Source: a bacterium
Lineage (GTDB): Bacteria; Verrucomicrobiota; Verrucomicrobiia; Limisphaerales; J093
Length of the DNA stretch: 64,000 nucleotides
Direction: 5' to 3'
Assembly: GCA_021823625.1 (NCBI GenBank)
Contig: JAKANS010000006.1
Coordinates: 616 to 64,615, forward strand
Part shown: piece after piece, positions 2,001-45,936 of the stretch
Position numbering within the stretch: position 1 is the first letter of the stretch
Layout of the letters: each line of letters opens with the position of its first letter
Translations under genes and position numbers: made by a program
The notes under the pieces: model-generated
Told to the model about the DNA's origin: nothing
Seen by the model: only the letters and a program-made list of their open reading frames with translations
Databases searched by the model: none

Positions 2001-3938
2001 ATGAGCAGCGCGGAATCCACAACATCGCCGCGGTCGGCCACCAAGGGTTCGCGGAGGAATTGGGTAACGCGCCGGTTGGCGAGGTGGCCGCTGCTACGCC
2101 TCATGGCGCGGAGCCGGCCCTTCCTTGTCGTGGTGCTGATGGCGGTACTCGTGGCGATTGCCGGGCCGCTCCTCCTGTTGAAAATCTGGCGGGTCACACC
2201 GCCCGACTTCAGGCCGCTGGTGCGGGTCAGCCTGCTCGACCACATTCAGGCGCGGTCACTCATCCGCAATGCCCGCGCCGCGGAATCGTGGGGTGATTTC
2301 GAGACGGCCAACCTGGCCTGGCGCGCTGCCGTGGCGAAAATTCCGGTGGACGACCAGGCTTTGCGGGGTGGCCTGAGGGTCATCCCGCGGCTTCCCAAGC
2401 CCACCGATTACGCCAGTACTGCGCTCGGCATGGGATCCTGGTTGATCCAATTGAGCCACACCAAGGTGGCGGACCTGGAGTTGATTGCCACGGTGTGGAA
2501 CCGGTGTCAGCTCTACGAGCGCACGGCCGCCATCGCCAGGACCGTTACGAACGTTCACTCCGCCACCTTGGACCGGCTGCTGGCCATCGCTTTATTTCAG
2601 AGCGCCCGCTATGCGGCTCTTCAAAGGCTTTTGAGCGGCAACAGCGCGCTTTCGGCGGTTGTCAACCAAGCGACCGACCCGATGGCAGCGGATGCCGCCA
2701 TGAAGGATTCGGACGCCGAATTTCGCGCCGTCAGCCTCGCGTATCTCGCGGGTTGGGGACCACCAGAGCAACGCGGGACGGCCCTGCGCCTCCTCCAGGA
2801 AATGGAGCAAAAGCCCCAATCGGAGGTGCTCGCTTACGAGTTGGAGATGACGGTGTACCTCCAACTCCGCGATATGATCGGCATGGAGCAAGCCTTCCAA
2901 CACCTCCAGGACAGCGGCCGGATCGGCATCTGGCACATGACCGCATATTGGACGCTGCTCGCCCTCGAAGGTCGCAAAGAGGAAGCCGTGAAGCTCGCGA
3001 AAGAGGCCAATCCCGTCCCCAAGACGGGCAACGATGTCATGCGGTTCGTGGGCACGTTCACGCTCCTCGGGCTGTACGATGAGGCCGAGCAGTTGTGCCG
3101 ACGCTACTTCAGCGACCCGCCTTGGGTTCAGGCAGGCGCCCTCATGCGGAGCGACCTCTTGATGCGCATGAAGCGGTGGGATGACCTCCGGCTCCTCGCC
3201 TACCAGATTCGCCGTTACCCGGACGTGATGGGCGCACTCGGAGGGTTCAGTTCCTTCATCGAAGGCATGGCCGAGTGGTCGCAGGGGTACACCGACAATG
3301 CGGAGCGCGCGTTCCAGAAAGCGGTCGATGAGGGCTTTCGCGATCCCCGGTTGGCAATTCAGGTAGCCCGCAGTCTGCTCAACATTAAGGAAGCGAAATA
3401 CGCGGAGCCGGTCCTGCTCGCCCGCCGGGCGCAACTGGATAACGAGCCAAGCTTCCTGAACCTCCTCGTGCAGTGCGCGTACTACCTGCACAAGTCCGAC
3501 TATTTGATGGACACGGTCACGAAACTCTATCAACTCTCGCCGAAAGAACCGCGGGCGATGAATAACTACGCGGCCACGCTGCTGCTTTACCGCAAAAGGC
3601 CTGAAGAAGCCGTCCGCCTCACGCTGCAGCTCATGCAGGCCTATCCGAATTCGGAGGTGTTACTGAATCATGCGACCGCCTTGAGCATGAACGACCGGCT
3701 GGATGACGCCGATAAACTGCTCCTGCGTCTTGCGACCGCTCCGCTGGACACCGCCACCGCGGCCCAGTACCACCTTATGCTGTTCGAACTTCGCCTCAAG
3801 CAAGGCCGGATCGCGGAAGCGCGCAGCGAACTGCGCGCCATCGACACCACCCAACTCTTCCCGGTGCAGGTCGAATGGCTGGAGAAAACAGCGCCGCAAC
3901 TGGACGCTGCGCCCGCTCCCAAACCCGCCGGCCCGTAG
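2001..3938 (+). CDS. Membrane-anchored TPR/helical-repeat protein
   Basis: Part of ORF 1980..3938, with an ATG at 2001. It has an N-terminal hydrophobic helix (FLVVVLMAVLVAIAGPLLLL). The remainder is A/L/Y-rich helical repeats with no catalytic motif. Confidence 0.65.
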   Translation: MSSAESTTSPRSATKGSRRNWVTRRLARWPLLRLMARSRPFLVVVLMAVLVAIAGPLLLLKIWRVTPPDFRPLVRVSLLDHIQARSLIRNARAAESWGDFETANLAWRAAVAKIPVDDQALRGGLRVIPRLPKPTDYASTALGMGSWLIQLSHTKVADLELIATVWNRCQLYERTAAIARTVTNVHSATLDRLLAIALFQSARYAALQRLLSGNSALSAVVNQATDPMAADAAMKDSDAEFRAVSLAYLAGWGPPEQRGTALRLLQEMEQKPQSEVLAYELEMTVYLQLRDMIGMEQAFQHLQDSGRIGIWHMTAYWTLLALEGRKEEAVKLAKEANPVPKTGNDVMRFVGTFTLLGLYDEAEQLCRRYFSDPPWVQAGALMRSDLLMRMKRWDDLRLLAYQIRRYPDVMGALGGFSSFIEGMAEWSQGYTDNAERAFQKAVDEGFRDPRLAIQVARSLLNIKEAKYAEPVLLARRAQLDNEPSFLNLLVQCAYYLHKSDYLMDTVTKLYQLSPKEPRAMNNYAATLLLYRKRPEEAVRLTLQLMQAYPNSEVLLNHATALSMNDRLDDADKLLLRLATAPLDTATAAQYHLMLFELRLKQGRIAEARSELRAIDTTQLFPVQVEWLEKTAPQLDAAPAPKPAGP

Positions 3939-5041: not shown

Positions 5042-5941
5042 ATGCAGTTCATTCGTGACCTTTACGCCCCGGCCGCCGCCGCCAGCCGGCCGGTCATTTC
5101 GTTCGAGTTCTTTACGCCCAAGACCGACGAGGGCGAGCGTTCGTTCTTCGAGAAAACGATGCCGGCTTTGGCCCAGCTCCGGCCGGGCTTTTGCTCGGTA
5201 ACCTATGGCGCCGGCGGGAGCACGCGCGACCGAACGCTCCGCATGGTCGAACGCATCCAGCGCGAATTCGGCATCCCGGCGATGGCGCATTTGACCTGCG
5301 TCGGCGCCACCCGCGAACAAATCACGGCCTTGTTGACCGACGCGCGGGCGCGCGGAATCCAAAACGTCCTGGCCCTGCGCGGCGATCCGCCGGCCGGCAC
5401 CACGGCGTTTCAGAAGGTGGCAGGCGGTTTTCAGTACGCGCATGAACTGGTCACGCTCACGCGCCAACTGGGCGGCTTTTCGATCGGGGTGGCGGGTTTT
5501 CCGGAAGGCCATTTGGAATGCCGCGAAGGCAAGGCGGTGGACTGGCAACGGTTGAAGGCCAAGATCGATTGCGGCGCGGATTTTGTCCTCACCCAGCTCT
5601 TCTTCGACAACGCCTTCTTCCGCGAGTTTCGCGATCACTTGACCCGCCAGCTTGGCGTGCGCGTGCCGATCGTCCCCGGCATCATCCCGATTCAAAGTGC
5701 CGGGCAGATTCGCAAATTCGTGGCGCTCTGCGGCGCGACCATTCCGCCCGCCCTCGCCGCCAGCCTGGACCGGTTGGCCAACGACGAGGCCGCCGCCGCG
5801 GAGTTCGGGATCGAATTCGCCACGGCGCAATGTGCGGACCTGTTGCGTCAGGGAGTTCCCGGCCTCCACTTTTACTCGCTGAACAAGGCGGGGCCCGTGA
5901 CCCGGATACTCGGCCAACTCGGGTTGTCGCCCAAAGGCTGA
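5042..5941 (+). CDS. metF: 5,10-methylenetetrahydrofolate reductase
   Basis: The ATG at 5042 opens MQFIRDLY... The product contains ISFEFFTPKT, SVTYGAGGSTR and ALRGDPP, and is collinear with MetF over its full length. Confidence 0.9.
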   Translation: MQFIRDLYAPAAAASRPVISFEFFTPKTDEGERSFFEKTMPALAQLRPGFCSVTYGAGGSTRDRTLRMVERIQREFGIPAMAHLTCVGATREQITALLTDARARGIQNVLALRGDPPAGTTAFQKVAGGFQYAHELVTLTRQLGGFSIGVAGFPEGHLECREGKAVDWQRLKAKIDCGADFVLTQLFFDNAFFREFRDHLTRQLGVRVPIVPGIIPIQSAGQIRKFVALCGATIPPALAASLDRLANDEAAAAEFGIEFATAQCADLLRQGVPGLHFYSLNKAGPVTRILGQLGLSPKG

Positions 5942-38599: not shown

Positions 38600-38870
38600 G
38601 GGTGCTGCTGGCTTTGTATCGCCGTCCAATCTGGCACCGCGACGGGCCCGGGCAAACCGGCCTGCATCCGCCGGTCACGCCCCACGCCCGCCCCCGCCTG
38701 CCAGTCACGACGCTCGGACTCTTGGCCGATTCCGTGGAATCGGCAAGCCCGGAGCGACAAGCTCCGCTCCTCGCCATGCTGGACCGGGCGCGGCCTGGCG
38801 TTGGACCCCAAAGCCGGATCATTTCCAACGTGGAACCTCGCAGTCGAAACCCGGACCTCGGCCAAAGCCT

Positions 38871-39035
38871 CGTGATCTCGACGGCGACGAACGCTGCGCA
38901 AGCCGACGCAAGGTGGCTCATGGCTCCGCCGACGCATCCGCTGGAAACGCTCTGGGTTCGCTGGTGGCCGACTGGCACCGGCGTCCACGTTAACGCTCCG
39001 CGAAGGCGCGAATGTCCTGCCGGCCCGAACGAGCG
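38871..39035 (+). repeat. Intergenic GC-rich repeat, copy R1 (~150-nt family)
   Basis: Aligns by eye with copies at 40448 and 41271. Shared blocks: cgtgatc, (g/c)(a/t)acgaacgc, ca(a/g)gg(c/t)ggctca(t/g)gg(c/t)tcc(g/a)ccgacgca, gct(c/t)t(g/c)ggttcgc, and ccgcg(a/c)(a/t)ggcg(c/t)gaa(t/g). Ends about 20 nt from the stop of the DUF5615 pseudogene. Confidence 0.7.
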
Positions 39036-39055
39036 AAATCGAGGAAGTGCAGGGA

Positions 39056-39312
39056 CTACCGGTGAGGTTCTCCGCTGTTTTCGGTGGTGATGAGCAGGAG
39101 CTTGGGCGGACCCTGGCCGAGTTCGTGAGTGATTTCGAAGTCCGTGTCCTTGGTGATCAGCTCGCGATCGACTTGGTTCGCCAAGGCTAACAGGAATGAA
39201 CGGGAGTGCGGTTCTGTTGGGCGAGATCGAGTGTGTGAATCACGTCATGCCCGCGCCGCTGGAGCCAGAGCACGAGTCGGCGCGGCAACTGGGCATCGAC
39301 CAAAAACTTCAC
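39056..39312 (-). pseudogene. DUF5615 (PIN-like, toxin-partner of DUF433) gene disrupted by a frameshift
   Basis: The GTG at 39312 overlaps the DUF433 stop (GTGA). It opens VKFLVDAQLPRRLVLWLQRRGHDVIHTLDL, and this frame stops at 39187. The family continuation ALANQVDRELITKDTDFEITHELGQGPPKLLLITTENSGEPHR is in another frame down to the stop at 39056-39058. The indel is near 39200-39215. Confidence 0.55.
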
Positions 39313-39545
39313 GCGGCCAAGGGTAGAATGCGGCGGACGCTGGCGAGCCGGGCGGCAAAGGCCAGGCTGGCGCACACGTCCTCGCGTTCACGGTCCGGAT
39401 AATCAGCGAGAGTCTCTCCCGCCGTCATGTTCCCTGCCAGCAGTTCCAGGATCATGCTCACGGAATAAGACAATCCGCGCACGGTGGGCTGGCCGTGGCC
39501 GATCGCGGGATCGACCGTGATGTGTTTCGGCGCGTCCTTCATCAA
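39309..39545 (-). CDS. DUF433 domain protein (antitoxin-like partner of DUF5615)
   Basis: ITVDPAIGHGQPTVRGLSYSVSMILELLAGNMTAGETLADYPDREREDVCASLAFAARL matches the DUF433 pattern (ITxDPxIxxGxPxIRGTRIxV...L..G.....IL..YP.L...DI..AL.YA). Confidence 0.75.
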   Translation of the reverse strand: MMKDAPKHITVDPAIGHGQPTVRGLSYSVSMILELLAGNMTAGETLADYPDREREDVCASLAFAARLASVRRILPLAA

Positions 39546-40401: not shown

Positions 40402-40447
40402 GCGCCTTTCGGCCATGTGGAGTGCGGCAAGAAGCATCAGAAGCCAT

Positions 40448-40593
40448 CGTGACCCCGGCGGCTACGAACGCTGCGCAAACCGACCCAAGGCGGCTCATGG
40501 CTCCACCGACGCATCGCTGACGGGGCTTTCGGTTCGCGGGTGGGGGACCGGCGTCTGCGCCCGCGCCGGCTTTCCGCGAAGGCGTGAAGTTCC
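40448..40593 (+). repeat. Intergenic GC-rich repeat, copy R2
   Basis: Same family and orientation as R1 and R3. Contains the hairpin gcgggtg(40536-40542)...cgcccgc(40558-40564). Ends 3 nt from the ParE-like stop. Confidence 0.7.
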
Positions 40594-40595
40594 GC

Positions 40596-40892
40596 TTAGC
40601 CTCCGGACAACCGTTTCCTCCAATAACCAGGCCGCCTGTAACCGTTGGCCACCGCGAGCACCCAGACCGAATCGCCTTCCTCGACGTAAGCGATGTAAAA
40701 GGGGAACACTCTGAGATTCACCCGCCGATGGTCTCTCCGCAACCTCGGCAGCGTTGGATTCGTGGCGATCCAATTCAAACAGCCGATGACCTCGCGGTAG
40801 AATTTCTCGCCCAAACCCGGCTGCTGGTCCTCGTAGTACTCGACCTGGGCGGCAAACTCGGCCGCCGCCTCCGGGTGGAGTTCGAGGCTCAC
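40596..40892 (-). CDS. RelE/ParE family toxin
   Basis: Contains HPEAAAEFAAQVEYYEDQQPGLGEKFYREV and RVFPFYIAYVEEGDSVWVLAVANGYRRPGYW. The GTG start overlaps the antitoxin stop (GTGA). Confidence 0.75.
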   Translation of the reverse strand: MSLELHPEAAAEFAAQVEYYEDQQPGLGEKFYREVIGCLNWIATNPTLPRLRRDHRRVNLRVFPFYIAYVEEGDSVWVLAVANGYRRPGYWRKRLSGG

Positions 40893-41128: not shown

Positions 41129-41270
41129 ACCGAAGCACGATTTCGCATGGCCAACTGGCTGTCAACCGCCTGGCGTGGGCCGCTGGAATCCAGCGCCGCG
41201 TAAAGGCTACCTCTGACGGGCCGCCGCCGGCAAGCCGGACTGGTTTGTGATTCTGCATTCCACTGCGCCG

Positions 41271-41433
41271 CGTGATCTTGGCTGCTACGAACGCCGGCAA
41301 ACCGTCGCCAGGCGGCTCAGGGTTCCGCCGACGCAACCGCTGGCGACGCTCTCGGTTCGCGGGCGGGTGACCGGCGCCGGCGCCCGCGGCGGCTTTCCGC
41401 GCTGGCGCGAATGTTCTTCTCGCCTGAACGAAC
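41271..41433 (+). repeat. Intergenic GC-rich repeat, copy R3
   Basis: Same family and orientation. Hairpin gcgggcg(41359-41365)...cgcccgc(41381-41387). Its 3' end abuts the AT-richer R-M insertion. Confidence 0.7.
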
Positions 41434-41460
41434 AAAGGTGAATGTGGTGAGCGTTGTTAC

Positions 41461-41487
41461 TTGACTAACTAAGATTAGCCAACTAAG
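41461..41487 (+). promoter_or_regulatory. Candidate promoter/operator upstream of the RHH gene
   Basis: TTGACT at 41461-41466. Two direct AACTAAG heptamers at 41467-41473 and 41481-41487 flank the near-palindrome ctaagattag. A TAAGTT element lies 17 nt after the -35 element. The ATG is at 41510. Confidence 0.3.
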
Positions 41488-41509
41488 TTACCGCTAACGC
41501 AACACAGAA

Positions 41510-41704
41510 ATGAACAAAACGTTTCCCATTGAATTAAGCGAAGACTTGCACAAGCGACTTAAACACGCGGCGGTGGACGAGGACATGACGCTGCACGACT
41601 GGATTGTGCGGACCCTCACGGAAAAGGTCGGTGGCAATGGTGGACCGGATGAGACCTCAACCAAACGGAGTTCAAATCATGCTCGCCGCAACCGTAATCG
41701 TTAA
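41510..41704 (+). CDS. Ribbon-helix-helix (Arc/CopG/HicB-type) DNA-binding protein, putative controller of the R-M cassette
   Basis: [40 protein letters not shown] is a canonical RHH layout (beta strand, helix, helix), followed by a basic tail. Its 3' end overlaps the methyltransferase start. Confidence 0.65.
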
Positions 41705-42446
41705 ACCCAAGAAGACCAAGCGGGTTGCCCGCGGTGTCGCCACCAACGAGTTGATATTCTCAGCGTATCAGGCGACGAACGACATGGTCTTGCCGCACAT
41801 TCTGAAGCTATACGTGCCTGAAGGGAGCCTCGTGGCTGATGTGACCTACGGCAAAGGCGTATTCTGGAAAAGCATTCCCGCTGGCGTCTACGACTTGCGA
41901 CCGACTGACCTCCGAACTGGCGTGGATTGCAGAAAGCTCCCTTACGGCGACACGACGATGGACTGTGTTGTGTTCGACCCGCCCTACATGCACACGCCAG
42001 GTGGCACCGCACACCAGAACCACCAGAATTTCGAGCACTACTACTACAACAACGGAACAGAGAACGGCTCCAAGAAATACCACGAAGCGGTTCTGGACCT
42101 CTATTTCAAAGGAGCACGGGAGGCGTACCGCGTGCTGAAATTCGAGGGGATTTACATCGTGAAATGCCAGGATGAGGTCTGCGCCAATCAGCAGCGTCTG
42201 ACTCACGTGGAGATTTGCAACGAACTGACGGCGATGGGTTTTACGGTCGAAGACTTGTTCGTGGTGCTGCGAATGAACAAGCCGGGGGTGAGCCGCATGC
42301 TACGGCAGGTGCACGCTCGCAAGAACCATTCCTATTTCCTGGTCTTCCGCAAAGCTAAGTCGGTAAGGTATCTGCCTCCGCGAAGAAATGGCCAAACGGC
42401 TTTACACTTAGCGGAGGAAAAACCTCGTTCAACTTCGCGTAGCTAG
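41679..42446 (+). CDS. DNA methyltransferase (N6-adenine or N4-cytosine; DPPY motif)
   Basis: The SAM-binding motif-I-like [12 protein letters not shown] precedes the catalytic motif [11 protein letters not shown]. The C-terminal HSYFLVFRK block follows. Start chosen at ATG 41679; alternatives are 41637 and 41649. Confidence 0.8.
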
Positions 42447-43212
42447 CTGGAACGTCCAGATAGTAAATTCGTTTTAACTGGGCGATGTGCATCTGGTAGA
42501 TGCGCCACTGGTCTGGCAGGCAAATTTCGATCACTTCCTGCTTTTTCTTGTCTGTTTTCGTTTCGGTGAGGATGACCGGCGTGCCTAGAAAACGGCCGGT
42601 GCCGTAAACGCCATTCAATACGCGCTGATGAGCCCACACCTGAATCACGCGCTCCCTGGTGGACACCTTGATGGGCAAGTGAAACTTCGCTCGGTTGGGG
42701 CCAAGGTCGAAGATGAAGTCGGTAGGGAGGCTTGCCTCCATGTCGAGGTTTAGCACGGGCAAACTGGTTTTGGGATTGACGCCCAAACGCCAAGCGAACA
42801 AATGGCCGATTAAGTATTCAAAGAATGTGCCCGGAGTCTTCTGATCGCCCTCTTTGGTCAGGTCAACGAAACAGAAGAAGCTCACCGCGACCGAATAAAT
42901 GATACGGGTAATGCGGTCCGGCGTCATGTCTGGAACCGGATTCGTTGCAATGGCCTTTCGGAACGTCTCCCATTCGGAAAGGTCAGGCACGAACAACCCC
43001 TTGTTGACAGCCCGTGACAGTTTGTTGCCAAGCGCAAAGGCAAAATAGTCCTTTCCCGGGACCAGCGATCTGAGCCGTTTCGGGTCACATTTCGACAGGA
43101 AGCGCATCGACTCCTCAAAAACCTGCCCGAGCAGTTTTTGATTCTTCTCGCTCTTCACGTCGGCAGAAAACACATCCTGCAACTTCTTGTATGCTCTTGA
43201 TGGATCGGCCAT
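42355..43212 (-). CDS. Putative type II restriction endonuclease (no assignable family)
   Basis: C-terminal 286 codons of ORF 42355..45882, starting at the internal ATG 43212 with GGGAG 13 nt upstream. AT-richer like the methyltransferase and convergent with it. Carries a candidate PD...K-type core, [26 protein letters not shown]. The function is inferred mainly from context. Confidence 0.5.
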
Positions 43213-45846
43213 CGACGAGGGAGTCTCCCTGAAACTCCAATTCCCTGCAACAGTCGATTGAGCAACCACTTTCGACAGAAAGAAGATCGCCAGGCAAACT
43301 TTCCTCGAACACCCTCCCGAATTGTCGGCGCTTTCTAGGTTGGCGCGTATGTCTAAGCGCTCATGCCCAGAGCGGTTTCGCGTTCCCAGCGTTACAAGCG
43401 GCCGTTTCGCTCGCGGCTCCATTGCCAACTCCAGCCCACTGAGGTTCTGGACCTGTAGTTCGTAGCCTGCCGGCACGCTGGCTTTCCAGAGCAGGCGACC
43501 GCCTTCCTTGCGCCAGCGGAGTTCCACCCGGCCGGCGTCGGTCGGGATGGCGCCTTCGCACCAGTCGAGTTTGAGATCGGAGAACTTCACGCGGACGCGG
43601 CGGTTCACGCTGTCCACCTGCGCCAGCCCCAGCACGTCGCGGTAGAGCACGTGGACGGCGTGCGACGCGAAGCCGTGGTCGCAACTCGCATAGTCGCCGT
43701 CATTCTCCCAAAGCGTGCCCGTGCGGTCGGCCATGTAGAGCTGGTAGGCCAGCGATTCGTCGAGGTTCTGCTGCGCCAGGCCGTACCGGGAGAGGAGTTC
43801 GAGGCGGAGCACGTTGCCGACAAACGCGTTCGCCGGATAGACCTCGGGAAAGGCCTTGGTCTGCTTGCGTTGCGGACCGAAGTCTTGGACCAGCTTCTGC
43901 CACAGCGGGGCGTGCGTTTCCGGCGTCGCCACGTCGAAGAAGAACGCGAAGTACTGGCAGACCTCGGTGCGGTTGCGGGTGACTTCGAGCTTGCCGTTCT
44001 TGCGCACGGCGTTGTCCACGAAGAATTCGCCGTCGAAAGACTGCCGACGGATCGTGTCGCGGAGGCGGTTGGCGTCGCGGGCCAGCTCCGGCAGATCATA
44101 GAGCCGCGCCGCGGCGGCGAGCGCGCGGGCATAGAGCATGTTCGACGGATAGTTCACGTCCTGGACGAAGTCGTTCGCCTTGGACCACTCAACGAAGACC
44201 CAGCTTGGCAGCTTTTCGAGCAGACCATCGGCGTTGCGGAACGGCCGGAAGAATTCGAAGAGCTTGAGCACACGCGGACGCAGGGCCTCCACGAGCGCGC
44301 GGTCGCCGCTGCGGTCCAGGTATTCCTCAAGTTCGACCACGAACCACAGCGACCAGTTCGGGATGAAGATGCCGTCGTTGTGGTCCGCCGGATAACACAT
44401 CGGCAACATGCCATCGGGCAGGAATGCGAACTTCGGCGGGAGCTGGTAGTTCTCGAAAAAGTTGTGCTCGACTGCGGTGTCGCCACTCAGGTCATAGGCG
44501 ACGCGCGAAGTGAAGAAGCTGTCGCACAACCAACCGGCGCGTTCGCGCGACGGGCAGTCCATAAAAATATCCACGGCGTTTTGGCGGTAGGTCTCGCGCC
44601 CGGCGGCGAACAGGCGGTTCAACTGCTCGTCGCTGGCGGCGAACTGCGCCTGCCACACGTCCGGGTTCGCATATTCGCGCAAGTACACACCGCGAGCCGC
44701 GCATTCGCCGTCGAGCGCCAGCAGCTTCAGGTAACGCAGCGTGTACGGCTCGAACGACTCGACGTGGTACACGCCCGGTTCGAGCTGGTACTCGACGATG
44801 TTCACGCAACCGAGGCGTTTCCAATCCACGTCCTGTACGCGCAGGATTTCATCGAACAGGAAAAACAGCCGGCACCGGCTCTTGACCTCGATCTCGGCGC
44901 CGAGGAAGCCGGTCAGGTTCACGCCGAAATCCAGGATGCGGAACGCGCCGGCCGGCAGGGCGAAGTCGTCCTTCAGCGAGGCCGGCTGGTCGATGGCGGT
45001 GGACGCGGTGGTCTTGAGTCGCTGCAACTCCAGCGACGGGATGGTCGCGAGTTCGTTCTCCGGGTAGCCGCCGAGTTTGGGTCCAATCTGCGTCAAGGAA
45101 CGGTCCTTCCACGGATTGGAGGGCATTGCGCCCAGGTCGGCGCGGCCTTGCGACACGATCCGCGTGGGCTGGCGCCGCGCGAAATCCGGGTACGGCACGC
45201 CGCGTGGTAGCAGCGTCTTCGCGGGCTGAACCGCGCACGCGACCTCGGCGAAGTCAGCATTGGGATCGCGCCGCCAGGCGTCGTTGCCGGGGCTCAGGAG
45301 GTACACCTCGGAGAACGGTCGCTGGAAGCTGTACCGCTGCGTCTTCTGGAGCCGCTGATCGAGCACCGCGGCACGGAAGGGCGCGCCTTCGCCGCCGGTC
45401 GAGGCCAGCGCCTTGCCGTCGGCCACGACCTCGGCCTGGAGAAACGCCGGTTGGTCGAGCAGGTAATAACTGTTGACGTTGTAGCCGGCGACTTCGACGG
45501 CGATGACGTTCGTGCCCGGCTTGAGCCGGCCGGCCAATGGCCATTCGTCCACGCGGTAGAAGCCGTGCGGCCCGCGTGCCGGGCCGTGGCCGAGGAACTC
45601 GCCGTTCACCGTCGCGCGATAGAGCGTGGACGCAGTGAGACGAAGGGTGGCGGCTTCGGCGCCGTCCGCGGTGAGGATCGCCCGCCAACTGACGGTCAGG
45701 TTCTTCTCCGTTTCGCGGCCGGTGGGCCAGAGCGGTTGGGCCGAGCGAAAGGTAGGTTCGGCGAATAAACGCGCGGGCGCGAGGCCGAGAACGAAGATCA
45801 CGCCGGCGAGGAGGACACGGCGCCGGGCACAAAATAAGGAGCGCAT
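43213..45846 (-). CDS. Secreted GH78-like (alpha-L-rhamnosidase-related, six-hairpin) glycoside hydrolase; native 3' end lost and fused in frame to the downstream ORF
   Basis: The ATG at 45846 gives the signal MRSLFCARRRVLLAGVIFVLGLAPARLFA. Contains the FMDCPSRERAGWLCDSF block (compare DCPxRxERxGWxGD of GH78) and a C-terminal beta-sandwich ending near YELQVQNLSGLELA (~43425). There is no stop codon before the endonuclease ATG. Confidence 0.75.
43218..43230. promoter_or_regulatory. Perfect 13-bp palindrome AGGGAG-T-CTCCCT covering the putative endonuclease Shine-Dalgarno
   Basis: Read directly at 43218-43230. On the minus strand it is aGGGAGaCTCCCt, ending 5 nt before the ATG at 43212. Confidence 0.3.
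43327..43352 (+). repeat. Partial copy (3'-terminal block) of the intergenic repeat at the right edge of the R-M insertion
   Basis: ggcgctttctaggttggcgcgtatgtc resembles the 3' block of R3 (ggcggctttccgcgctggcgcgaatgttc). Downstream, 43365-43435 also carries pieces resembling the repeat's middle in reverse (cccagagcggtttc, gcggctccattgcc). Confidence 0.35.
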
Positions 45847-45936
45847 GGCACCCGACTTAACCGGCAGGCCGCCGGCCGTCAACAGCGGGTCCGCACCGAT
45901 GCGTGTGCCAATGCTCCGGGCGGACGGGGCGCGGAC

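Follow-up and report, generated by a model that had tools for sequence, protein, structure and literature searches.

A probable mobile Kpn2I-family restriction-modification module in the Verrucomicrobiota with a predicted ribbon-helix-helix repressor ahead of its methyltransferase gene

The contig JAKANS010000006.1 (assembly GCA_021823625.1) comes from a bacterium of the Verrucomicrobiota (Limisphaerales, J093). We analysed a stretch of 64,000 nucleotides of this contig (positions 616 to 64,615), here called the window. It contains a short, AT-richer block with three genes, encoding a 64-aa protein of predicted ribbon-helix-helix (RHH) type, a DPPY DNA methyltransferase (M) and, convergent to these, a putative restriction endonuclease (R) (Table 1). 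An earlier, sequence-only reading of the window had taken them for a horizontally acquired Type II restriction-modification (R-M) unit. It placed the three open reading frames (ORFs) correctly, its 286 codons for the convergent frame including the stop. In this study, we give evidence that the block is probably a mobile three-gene Type IIP module, composed of a Kpn2I-family endonuclease, its cognate DPPY methyltransferase and an RHH repressor which heads a translationally coupled RHH-M operon.

The endonuclease family had not been recognised from the sequence alone, and Pfam and NCBIfam give no match for R. PADLOC assigns R to REase_II (E = 7.8e-31), and phmmer aligns residues 54-276 with PDB entry 6ekr (E = 9.3e-32), titled 'Type IIP restriction endonuclease Kpn2I'. 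In a Foldseek search with the AlphaFold model of R (pLDDT 80, pTM 0.84), 6ekr is the sole strong match (E = 4.8e-16, TM 0.77/0.72) and Ecl18kI, of the CCGG family, a faint second. Identity to the plasmid-borne R.Kpn2I-type protein is 30%. Kpn2I cuts T/CCGGA and belongs to the CCGG family with its permuted PD...K...(E/D) site, in which Kpn2I has Gln; the R-(D/E)-R motif of the family reads CCGG (PMC6344858). P163-T164-D165, K182, R186-E187-R188 and Q196 of R are invariant in an alignment of 23 homologues, E132 is invariant in the family alignment as well, and the invariant residues align with the Kpn2I sequence TTRER...AQQR. E132, D165, K182, R186-E187-R188 and Q196 are therefore predicted active-site or recognition residues, the role of each being taken from the alignment. 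The PD...K-like core, previously noticed as weak, is part of this invariant set. Together, 6ekr, PADLOC and the signature residues place R in the CCGG family as a predicted Type IIP endonuclease of the Kpn2I branch, and the earlier proviso that the frame might match a non-nuclease family has been answered by a nuclease match. The gene looks intact, since all signature residues are kept; at 285 aa its product compares with 285-287 aa in homologues. The R family comprises 817 matches in the protein search and 59 loci in reference genomes of many phyla. The target of R is most likely a palindrome with a CCGG core, with T/CCGGA as the leading guess for its specificity. A literature search for TCCGGA methylomes returned primer noise only.

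For M, Pfam N6_N4_Mtase scores above gathering (E = 1e-7) and phrog_24333 matches with E = 1.4e-63. Motif I (DVTxGxG, residues 54-60) and motif IV (DPPY, residues 100-103) are at least 90% conserved in 31 homologues. Single-sequence searches of M and the RHH protein against PDB, and of all three proteins against NCBIfam, gave no useful matches. The best start of M is an ATG with GGAG 8 nt upstream, which makes the gene overlap the 3' end of the RHH gene by 26 nt. At its other end M runs into R. Conservation of M ends at residue 225 (nt 42353), precisely opposite the R stop codon, so that the shared stretch is predicted to be an unconstrained tail of M lying antisense to the conserved C-terminus of R. 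Comparable overlaps are found in five other loci (L001, L002, L004, L066 and L069). An M homologue is convergent with the nuclease gene, usually overlapping it, in 31 distinct loci, drawn from 35 fetched loci with some duplicates. With its motifs intact, M is predicted to form a cognate Type II R-M pair with R. The possibility that M belongs to an orphan or phage-type clade, raised by the sequence-only reading, applies only in part: M is paired with R in these 31 loci, but relatives of about 49% identity are orphans in mycobacteriophages. One of these is carried by Mycobacterium phage Dallas (56377-57273, L073), and Mycobacterium ostraviense and M. innocens carry the M-R pair (L058, L059). Such an orphan M could be a phage self-protection against this R-M family. 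Homologues of R with at most 53% identity have a C5 cytosine methyltransferase as partner instead (21 loci), as does Kpn2I itself. Two methyltransferase classes for one nuclease family would fit a target that holds both C and A, e.g. TCCGGA.

That the 64-aa protein has an RHH (MetJ/Arc/CopG) fold, as read earlier from its sequence, is supported by profile and model alike. As a single sequence, it matches Pfam RHH_10 (E = 4e-4, 21 bits against a gathering score of 27) and the C-terminal region of HicB (E = 1.5e-3), both below gathering, the latter match being confined to profile positions 18-51 of 51, the C-terminal RHH part. A profile of 12 family members matches the CopG-family protein 9kkd_A (E = 1e-4). 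The AF2 model shows residues 1-10 extended, then helices 11-23 and 28-40, with the tail disordered. In Foldseek, the top matches of this model are mostly RHH proteins, namely KacA, Arc, AtaR, CopG, VapB and TacA, with weak E-values for a small domain. The 24-residue tail is basic, of low complexity and variable length, and the least conserved part of the protein.

Two other identities for the 64-aa protein were considered and rejected. Several family members carry the public label 'HicB family antitoxin'. The protein is without the N-terminal RNase H-like domain of HicB, and none of the loci viewed has a HicA-like neighbour; the label is a mislabel for this RHH family. A classical controller (C) protein was the other candidate. 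The protein matches no helix-turn-helix (HTH) family, its gene precedes and overlaps M rather than R, and no motif is shared with, or common to, the regions upstream of R.

The RHH gene recurs together with M. In 11 further distinct loci, an RHH homologue lies directly upstream of M and overlaps it by 4 or 26 nt; these genomes are labelled Verrucomicrobia, NC10, Nitrospirae, Kiritimatiellia, Chloroflexi and Spirochaetes, and the flanks are unrelated. Two more loci have divergent RHH-like ORFs in the slot upstream of M. The RHH-M-R arrangement as a whole is counted in at least 12 further distinct loci of several phyla. A profile search of 5.8 billion proteins found 162 family members only, all of about 60-64 aa. 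Three additional RHH contexts were sampled: two have RHH overlapping M by 4 or 26 nt and a convergent R, and the third has an intact RHH gene beside fragmented ORFs. Because the RHH-M order recurs across phyla with unrelated flanks, and because the family is small, the RHH protein appears to be dedicated to this module. The sequence-only reading had put it in the controller position. A regulator-like gene does stand within the R-M unit, but it heads the M operon, whereas a classical C gene heads the R operon.

Not all copies of the module are in good order. In L071 (3501-5600) the RHH gene is intact, but only fragmented ORFs occupy the expected place of M and R downstream of it, and in L019 (3978-4860) the endonuclease is split over two frames, with RHH and M intact. 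These may be decaying copies, or long-read assembly errors.

Table 1. Features of the R-M module and its surroundings (positions in the window)
Feature	Position	Strand	Basis or remarks
RHH gene, 64 aa (predicted fold)	41510..41704	+	strand ~3-9, helices 11-23 and 28-40, basic poorly conserved tail 41-64
M, 255-aa amino-type DPPY DNA methyltransferase (predicted)	41679..42446	+	Pfam N6_N4_Mtase, phrog_24333
R, 285-aa Kpn2I-like Type IIP endonuclease, CCGG family (predicted)	42355..43212	-	PADLOC, PDB 6ekr, invariant residues
M/R 3'-3' overlap, 92 nt	42355..42446	.	convergent genes; no terminator between
Candidate RHH-M promoter	41461..41489	+	TTGACT 41461-41466, 17-nt spacer, TAAGTT 41484-41489
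Candidate RHH operator palindromes	CTAA-N6-TTAG 41465-41478; AACT-A-AGTT 41481-41489	+	overlap promoter hexamers
Region upstream of R	43213..43352	-	holds GGGAG ribosome-binding site, end of L019 homology (43235), 23-nt partial repeat match
Left edge of segment absent from L065	41181..41270	.	unique sequence between ParE/antitoxin cassette and repeat copy 3
Local repeat copy 3	41271..41436	+	left flank of module
Junction segment, GC-rich	43353..43428	.	absent from L065; now in stop-free extension of rhamnosidase frame
Host alpha-L-rhamnosidase-like gene, right flank	43429..45882	-	Pfam Bac_rhamnosid6H and Bac_rhamnosid_C

Upstream of the RHH gene, candidate operator elements were found within 41440-41510, CTAA-N6-TTAG and AACTAAGTT, the former being present also in L014 and L025. 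A similar promoter layout precedes RHH genes in other loci, with a TTGACT-type hexamer, mostly a 17-nt spacer and TAA(G/C)(T/C)T. Variants are a GACAAA-type -35 with a 16-nt spacer (L009, L010 and L012), 21 nt in L006, and a slightly deviating arrangement in L002. The 7-mer ACTWAGT occurs in 8 of the 13 RHH-positive upstream regions and in none of the 16 upstream regions of M without RHH (hypergeometric estimate, relatedness of the loci ignored, P about 3e-4). Within the module it is found only at 41482-41488. The conserved palindromic elements are consistent with an RHH operator. Moreover, the RHH subgroup with Gln for Glu at strand position 8 is the subgroup with a different -35 region, a weak hint of direct readout by the RHH protein. 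A consensus sigma-70 scan did not list the RHH promoter; TAAGTT matches TATAAT in 3/6 positions.

The endonuclease gene has a start of its own, an ATG with GGGAG (43229-43225) 12 nt ahead of it. No motif is common to the R upstream regions across 11 loci, and a regulator site shared there was accordingly dropped as a candidate. With no such site in common, the idea that the RHH protein controls R directly is not supported; its influence on R would be indirect or absent, as in Kpn2I itself.

The composition of the block points to a foreign origin. On recount, the three 60-nt G+C values by which the sequence-only reading had noticed a sharp drop are exact: 22/60 (41461-41520) and 30/60 (42841-42900) versus 47/60 (45361-45420). 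The block at 41437-43352 has a G+C content of 0.530, about 7 standard deviations (sd) below the mean of the remaining 1916-nt segments of the 64 kb (mean 0.649, sd 0.017, minimum 0.598). GC3 of the sucA-like and rhamnosidase genes on either side is 0.83-0.85, that of the three module genes 0.58-0.70. The R-M module is absent from L065, a close relative of the host whose flanking genes are 86-91% identical. On the rhamnosidase side, homology to this relative stops at 43429, with 91% nucleotide identity up to there, and it picks up again at 41180, within a ParE/antitoxin cassette. The replaced segment is thus 41181-43428, wider than the limits of 41436-43352 first given for the insert. Between the two ends, 1.33 kb including a trypsin-like gene stand in the relative, against repeat copy 3 and the R-M module in the window. 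Because homology breaks at both ends with different content between them, the event is a replacement in a variable islet, which also removed the stop codon of the rhamnosidase gene.

A further comparison concerns the module itself. The stretch 41447-43235 is 82% identical in nucleotides to the module in L019, a genome labelled NC10, and this includes the RHH gene and its promoter. Since the homology spans exactly that stretch, we take it as the predicted mobile core of the module, promoter included. Composition, absence from the close relative and the match to L019 agree with the earlier proposal of horizontal acquisition and indicate that the block is foreign DNA in a GC-rich chromosome. Regarding the means of transfer, a 14-nt direct repeat, TGGCCAACAATAAA / TGGCCAACAAAAAA, flanks the module in L014, labelled Nitrospirae (3919-3932 and 5758-5771, about 60 nt beyond each end). 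This may reflect a target duplication or mere coincidence, and among the other loci checked no direct repeats or target duplications flank the module, so that this feature is not general. In L069 (1590-3224), an RHH-M-R copy adjoins a phage-type integrase and an HTH_17 excisionase-like gene; an integrative element of this kind is one plausible vehicle for spread of the module.

On the right, the replacement has left R in an unusual setting. The earlier reading had overlooked that the 286 codons of R close a longer stretch of 1175 codons without a stop (42355-45882, minus strand), which starts in the alpha-L-rhamnosidase gene. In the relative L065 the rhamnosidase ends ...GLELVRET*; in the window its last four codons and the stop are replaced, and the frame reads through 72 extra codons, in frame, to the R ATG. 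The rhamnosidase homologue P0121 has 811 aa and is 93% identical as a protein. By rough estimate, the chance of a connection that is both stop-free and in the same frame is a few percent.

The module lies in an islet (38.9-43.4 kb) of toxin-antitoxin cassettes, DUF433/DUF5615, Gp49-HigB/HTH and ParE/antitoxin, with at least four toxin-antitoxin pairs according to Pfam. Its left neighbour is a 2-oxoglutarate dehydrogenase E1 gene (sucA-like), not IntI. One toxin gene of the islet, a PIN-like DUF5615 gene (39056-39375, minus strand) beside a DUF433 antitoxin gene (39309-39545), is apparently frameshifted: the ORF 39187-39375 covers only profile positions 2-33 of 110, and the remainder seems to lie in the ORF 39056-39184. 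A repeat family of about 170 nt is found in three copies between the cassettes (38870-39037, 40447-40600 and 41271-41436). The relative L065, with three tandem copies (L065 14334-15050), differs from the window in copy number. Rfam gives no matches to the repeats in 36-46 kb at E <= 1 and the sole tRNA lies at 58.2 kb; a structured RNA or a tRNA attachment site was rejected as the origin of the repeats. Integron attC cassettes were rejected as well, because the repeats fold no better than shuffled sequence, have no consensus hairpin and are accompanied by no integrase in 35.7-45.9 kb; moreover, their conserved ends are direct, not inverted. The sequence-only reading had the insert bracketed by a repeat block on both sides. 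On the right, 43330-43352 does match the repeat block 41392-41414 in 18/23 positions and in the same orientation, a match found with a pattern derived from those two copies themselves, but a pattern from the repeat family alone missed the right-hand copy and a repeat search of the window was also without this pair. The right-hand block is marginal. As to the wider host DNA, several 6-bp palindromes are strongly avoided in the window outside 41437-43428 (GTCGAC 0 versus 22.7 expected, CAGCTG 1 versus 17.5, CCCGGG 11 versus 27), which suggests past or present R-M systems of SalI, PvuII and SmaI type in the host lineage.

How might the module work? Upon entry into a naive cell without RHH protein, the near-consensus promoter TTGACT-17-TAAGTT would fire and M would accumulate, as its sequence suggests. 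RHH dimers would then bind the palindromes over the -35, the spacer and the -10, and RHH-M transcription would drop to a steady state; fold, synteny and motifs point to this step. For M, the outcome would be an early burst followed by a low steady level. The most likely function of the RHH protein is autorepression of the RHH-M operon, which would parallel the action of C.Kpn2I on the M promoter. R, with no direct RHH control, would depend on a promoter that is weak or governed by its context; in this genome, transcription reading through from the rhamnosidase gene may serve. Speculatively, R might be delayed relative to M by interference from the strong convergent RHH-M transcript, which would run antisense into R.

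A more far-reaching proposal is possible, and we make it tentatively. The RHH family might be a second, structurally unrelated class of R-M controllers, which times the establishment of a Type IIP system by negative feedback alone: a strong RHH-M operon would first protect the genome, its convergent, overlapping transcription would suppress R and the RHH-driven shut-down would release it, with no activator and no site at R.

Several points weigh against the interpretation of the block as a functional, RHH-regulated Kpn2I-type module. RHH is missing from roughly half the loci that have this M-R pair. The RHH protein is therefore dispensable, an accessory as C proteins are. The 7-mer ACTAAGT contains the -10 hexamer, so the conserved elements could be promoter hexamers only; the loci are related, so that 8/13 versus 0/16 overstates their independence. 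At 30% identity, the flanking-base specificity of Kpn2I cannot be transferred to R, and the AF2 model of R is of low confidence at 185-207, a region that includes the R-E-R motif. The host DNA shows no avoidance of TCCGGA (24 observed versus 23.8 expected), and host avoidance was dropped as support for the guessed specificity, although a recent arrival would likewise leave none. Finally, R no longer has an upstream context of its own and shares the reading frame of a host gene, which may make its expression abnormal.

This last point leads to the alternative that survives best, which we nevertheless consider unlikely: the module may be a decaying or silent remnant in this genome, with M and perhaps RHH functional and R poorly expressed or being lost, i.e. 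an orphan methylase with a repressor. Besides the position of R in frame behind a host gene that lacks its stop, the decay of related loci (M and R fragmented with RHH intact in L071, R split in L019), the frameshift in the neighbouring DUF5615 toxin and the orphan state of the M family in phages would all suit such a remnant. R is of full length, though, within the range of its homologues, keeps every invariant residue of its family and has its own ATG and GGGAG site, and the splits in L019 and L071 may be assembly errors.

It is considerably less probable that the RHH protein is an antitoxin-like inhibitor of R, perhaps also a repressor, whose C-terminal tail neutralises R until the genome is methylated. 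R-M systems are known to act like toxin-antitoxin systems (PMC3874152), family members are automatically annotated as 'HicB family antitoxin', the nearest structural matches include the antitoxins KacA, AtaR, TacA and VapB, and 24 residues extend past the RHH core. Toxin-binding tails normally co-evolve and are conserved, whereas this tail is the least conserved part of the protein and is disordered in the prediction; moreover, the gene is coupled to M rather than to R, and the many M-R pairs without RHH would be untenable if it were the neutraliser.

A chance neighbourhood, with the RHH ORF a remnant of some toxin-antitoxin pair unrelated to the R-M genes, would suit an islet with at least four toxin-antitoxin pairs and single-sequence Pfam scores below gathering, but this reading is effectively refuted by conserved synteny, given the RHH-M overlap in 11 further distinct loci of many phyla with unrelated flanks and in 2/3 of the sampled family contexts, the inclusion of the RHH gene and promoter in the 82% L019 homology, and the lack of an adjacent toxin gene.

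The interpretation as a mobile module with an RHH repressor of the M operon can be compared with known systems. Among these, the Kpn2I system from a Klebsiella plasmid (PDB 6EKR) is the closest in its endonuclease. C.Kpn2I represses the M promoter, and R is constitutive and independent of C; Kpn2I relatives are either without a regulator or have XRE regulators (PMC6237814). Both systems have the same endonuclease fold and family with the R-E-R and PD...K...Q residues, convergent R and M genes, and a small regulator on the M promoter (here predicted) with no regulator site at R. They differ in that R identity is just 30% and that Kpn2I has a 375-aa C5 cytosine methyltransferase in place of the 255-aa DPPY enzyme. 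The Kpn2I regulator is of HTH/XRE type, with a divergent and separately transcribed gene, whereas the RHH gene is co-directional with M and overlaps it. The roadblock mechanism of Kpn2I has no apparent counterpart in the module described here.

The C proteins proper (C.PvuII, C.BamHI, C.AhdI and C.Esp1396I) share with the RHH protein that a small dedicated DNA-binding protein is part of the R-M unit, with a presumed role in the balance of M and R once the unit has reached a new host. They are Xre-type HTH dimers which act on C-boxes, are usually encoded before R and co-transcribed with it, and both activate and repress (PMC12707154, PMC6237814). The module here, in contrast, would have an RHH fold ahead of M, no C-box and repression only. 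In systems of SsoII/Ecl18kI type, the M unit likewise represses its own promoter by a DNA-binding module made with M (PMC6237814, PMC2760811). There the module is an HTH fused to M, and the R promoter, which is divergent, becomes de-repressed when M is repressed. The window has an unfused RHH protein and a convergent R instead. RHH autorepressors of mobile modules, such as CopG, Arc, omega and the antitoxins KacA, AtaR and ParD, resemble our candidate in the strand-helix-helix fold, in the position as first gene of the operon and in the operator over the promoter, which is predicted here. Their partner is a toxin or replication gene, in contrast to a DNA methyltransferase and a protein with no conserved partner-binding tail.

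Described regulation of Type II R-M systems includes HTH C proteins, DNA-binding domains fused to M, promoter methylation and antisense RNA (PMC12707154, PMC6237814). In a 2025 review of R-M biology, C proteins are of HTH type and RHH proteins go unmentioned (PMC12707154). Our full-text literature search found no paper in which a Type II R-M system has an RHH controller. The MANTIS preprint (bioRxiv 10.64898/2026.09.23.753747) mentions in passing MtsR, an Arc/CopG-related putative repressor in some methylation-based defence operons, and this is the nearest precedent. MANTIS is a BREX-related multi-gene system and not Type IIP.

The module is not a new kind of defence system. R and M belong to families already described. 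What is new is the fold of the predicted regulator, whose role is a familiar one, and its place before M and not before R. If this is true, the known controls of R-M systems would gain, with a dedicated RHH repressor, a further regulator fold and a simpler circuit that works by repression only. This predicted repressor recurs with one M-R pair over many phyla. At 1.8 kb the module is small and readily cloned, and would be suited for asking whether convergent transcription alone delays a restriction gene. Beyond its regulation, the module brings environmental phyla into the range of the Kpn2I endonuclease family, which has one or the other of two methyltransferases as its partner.

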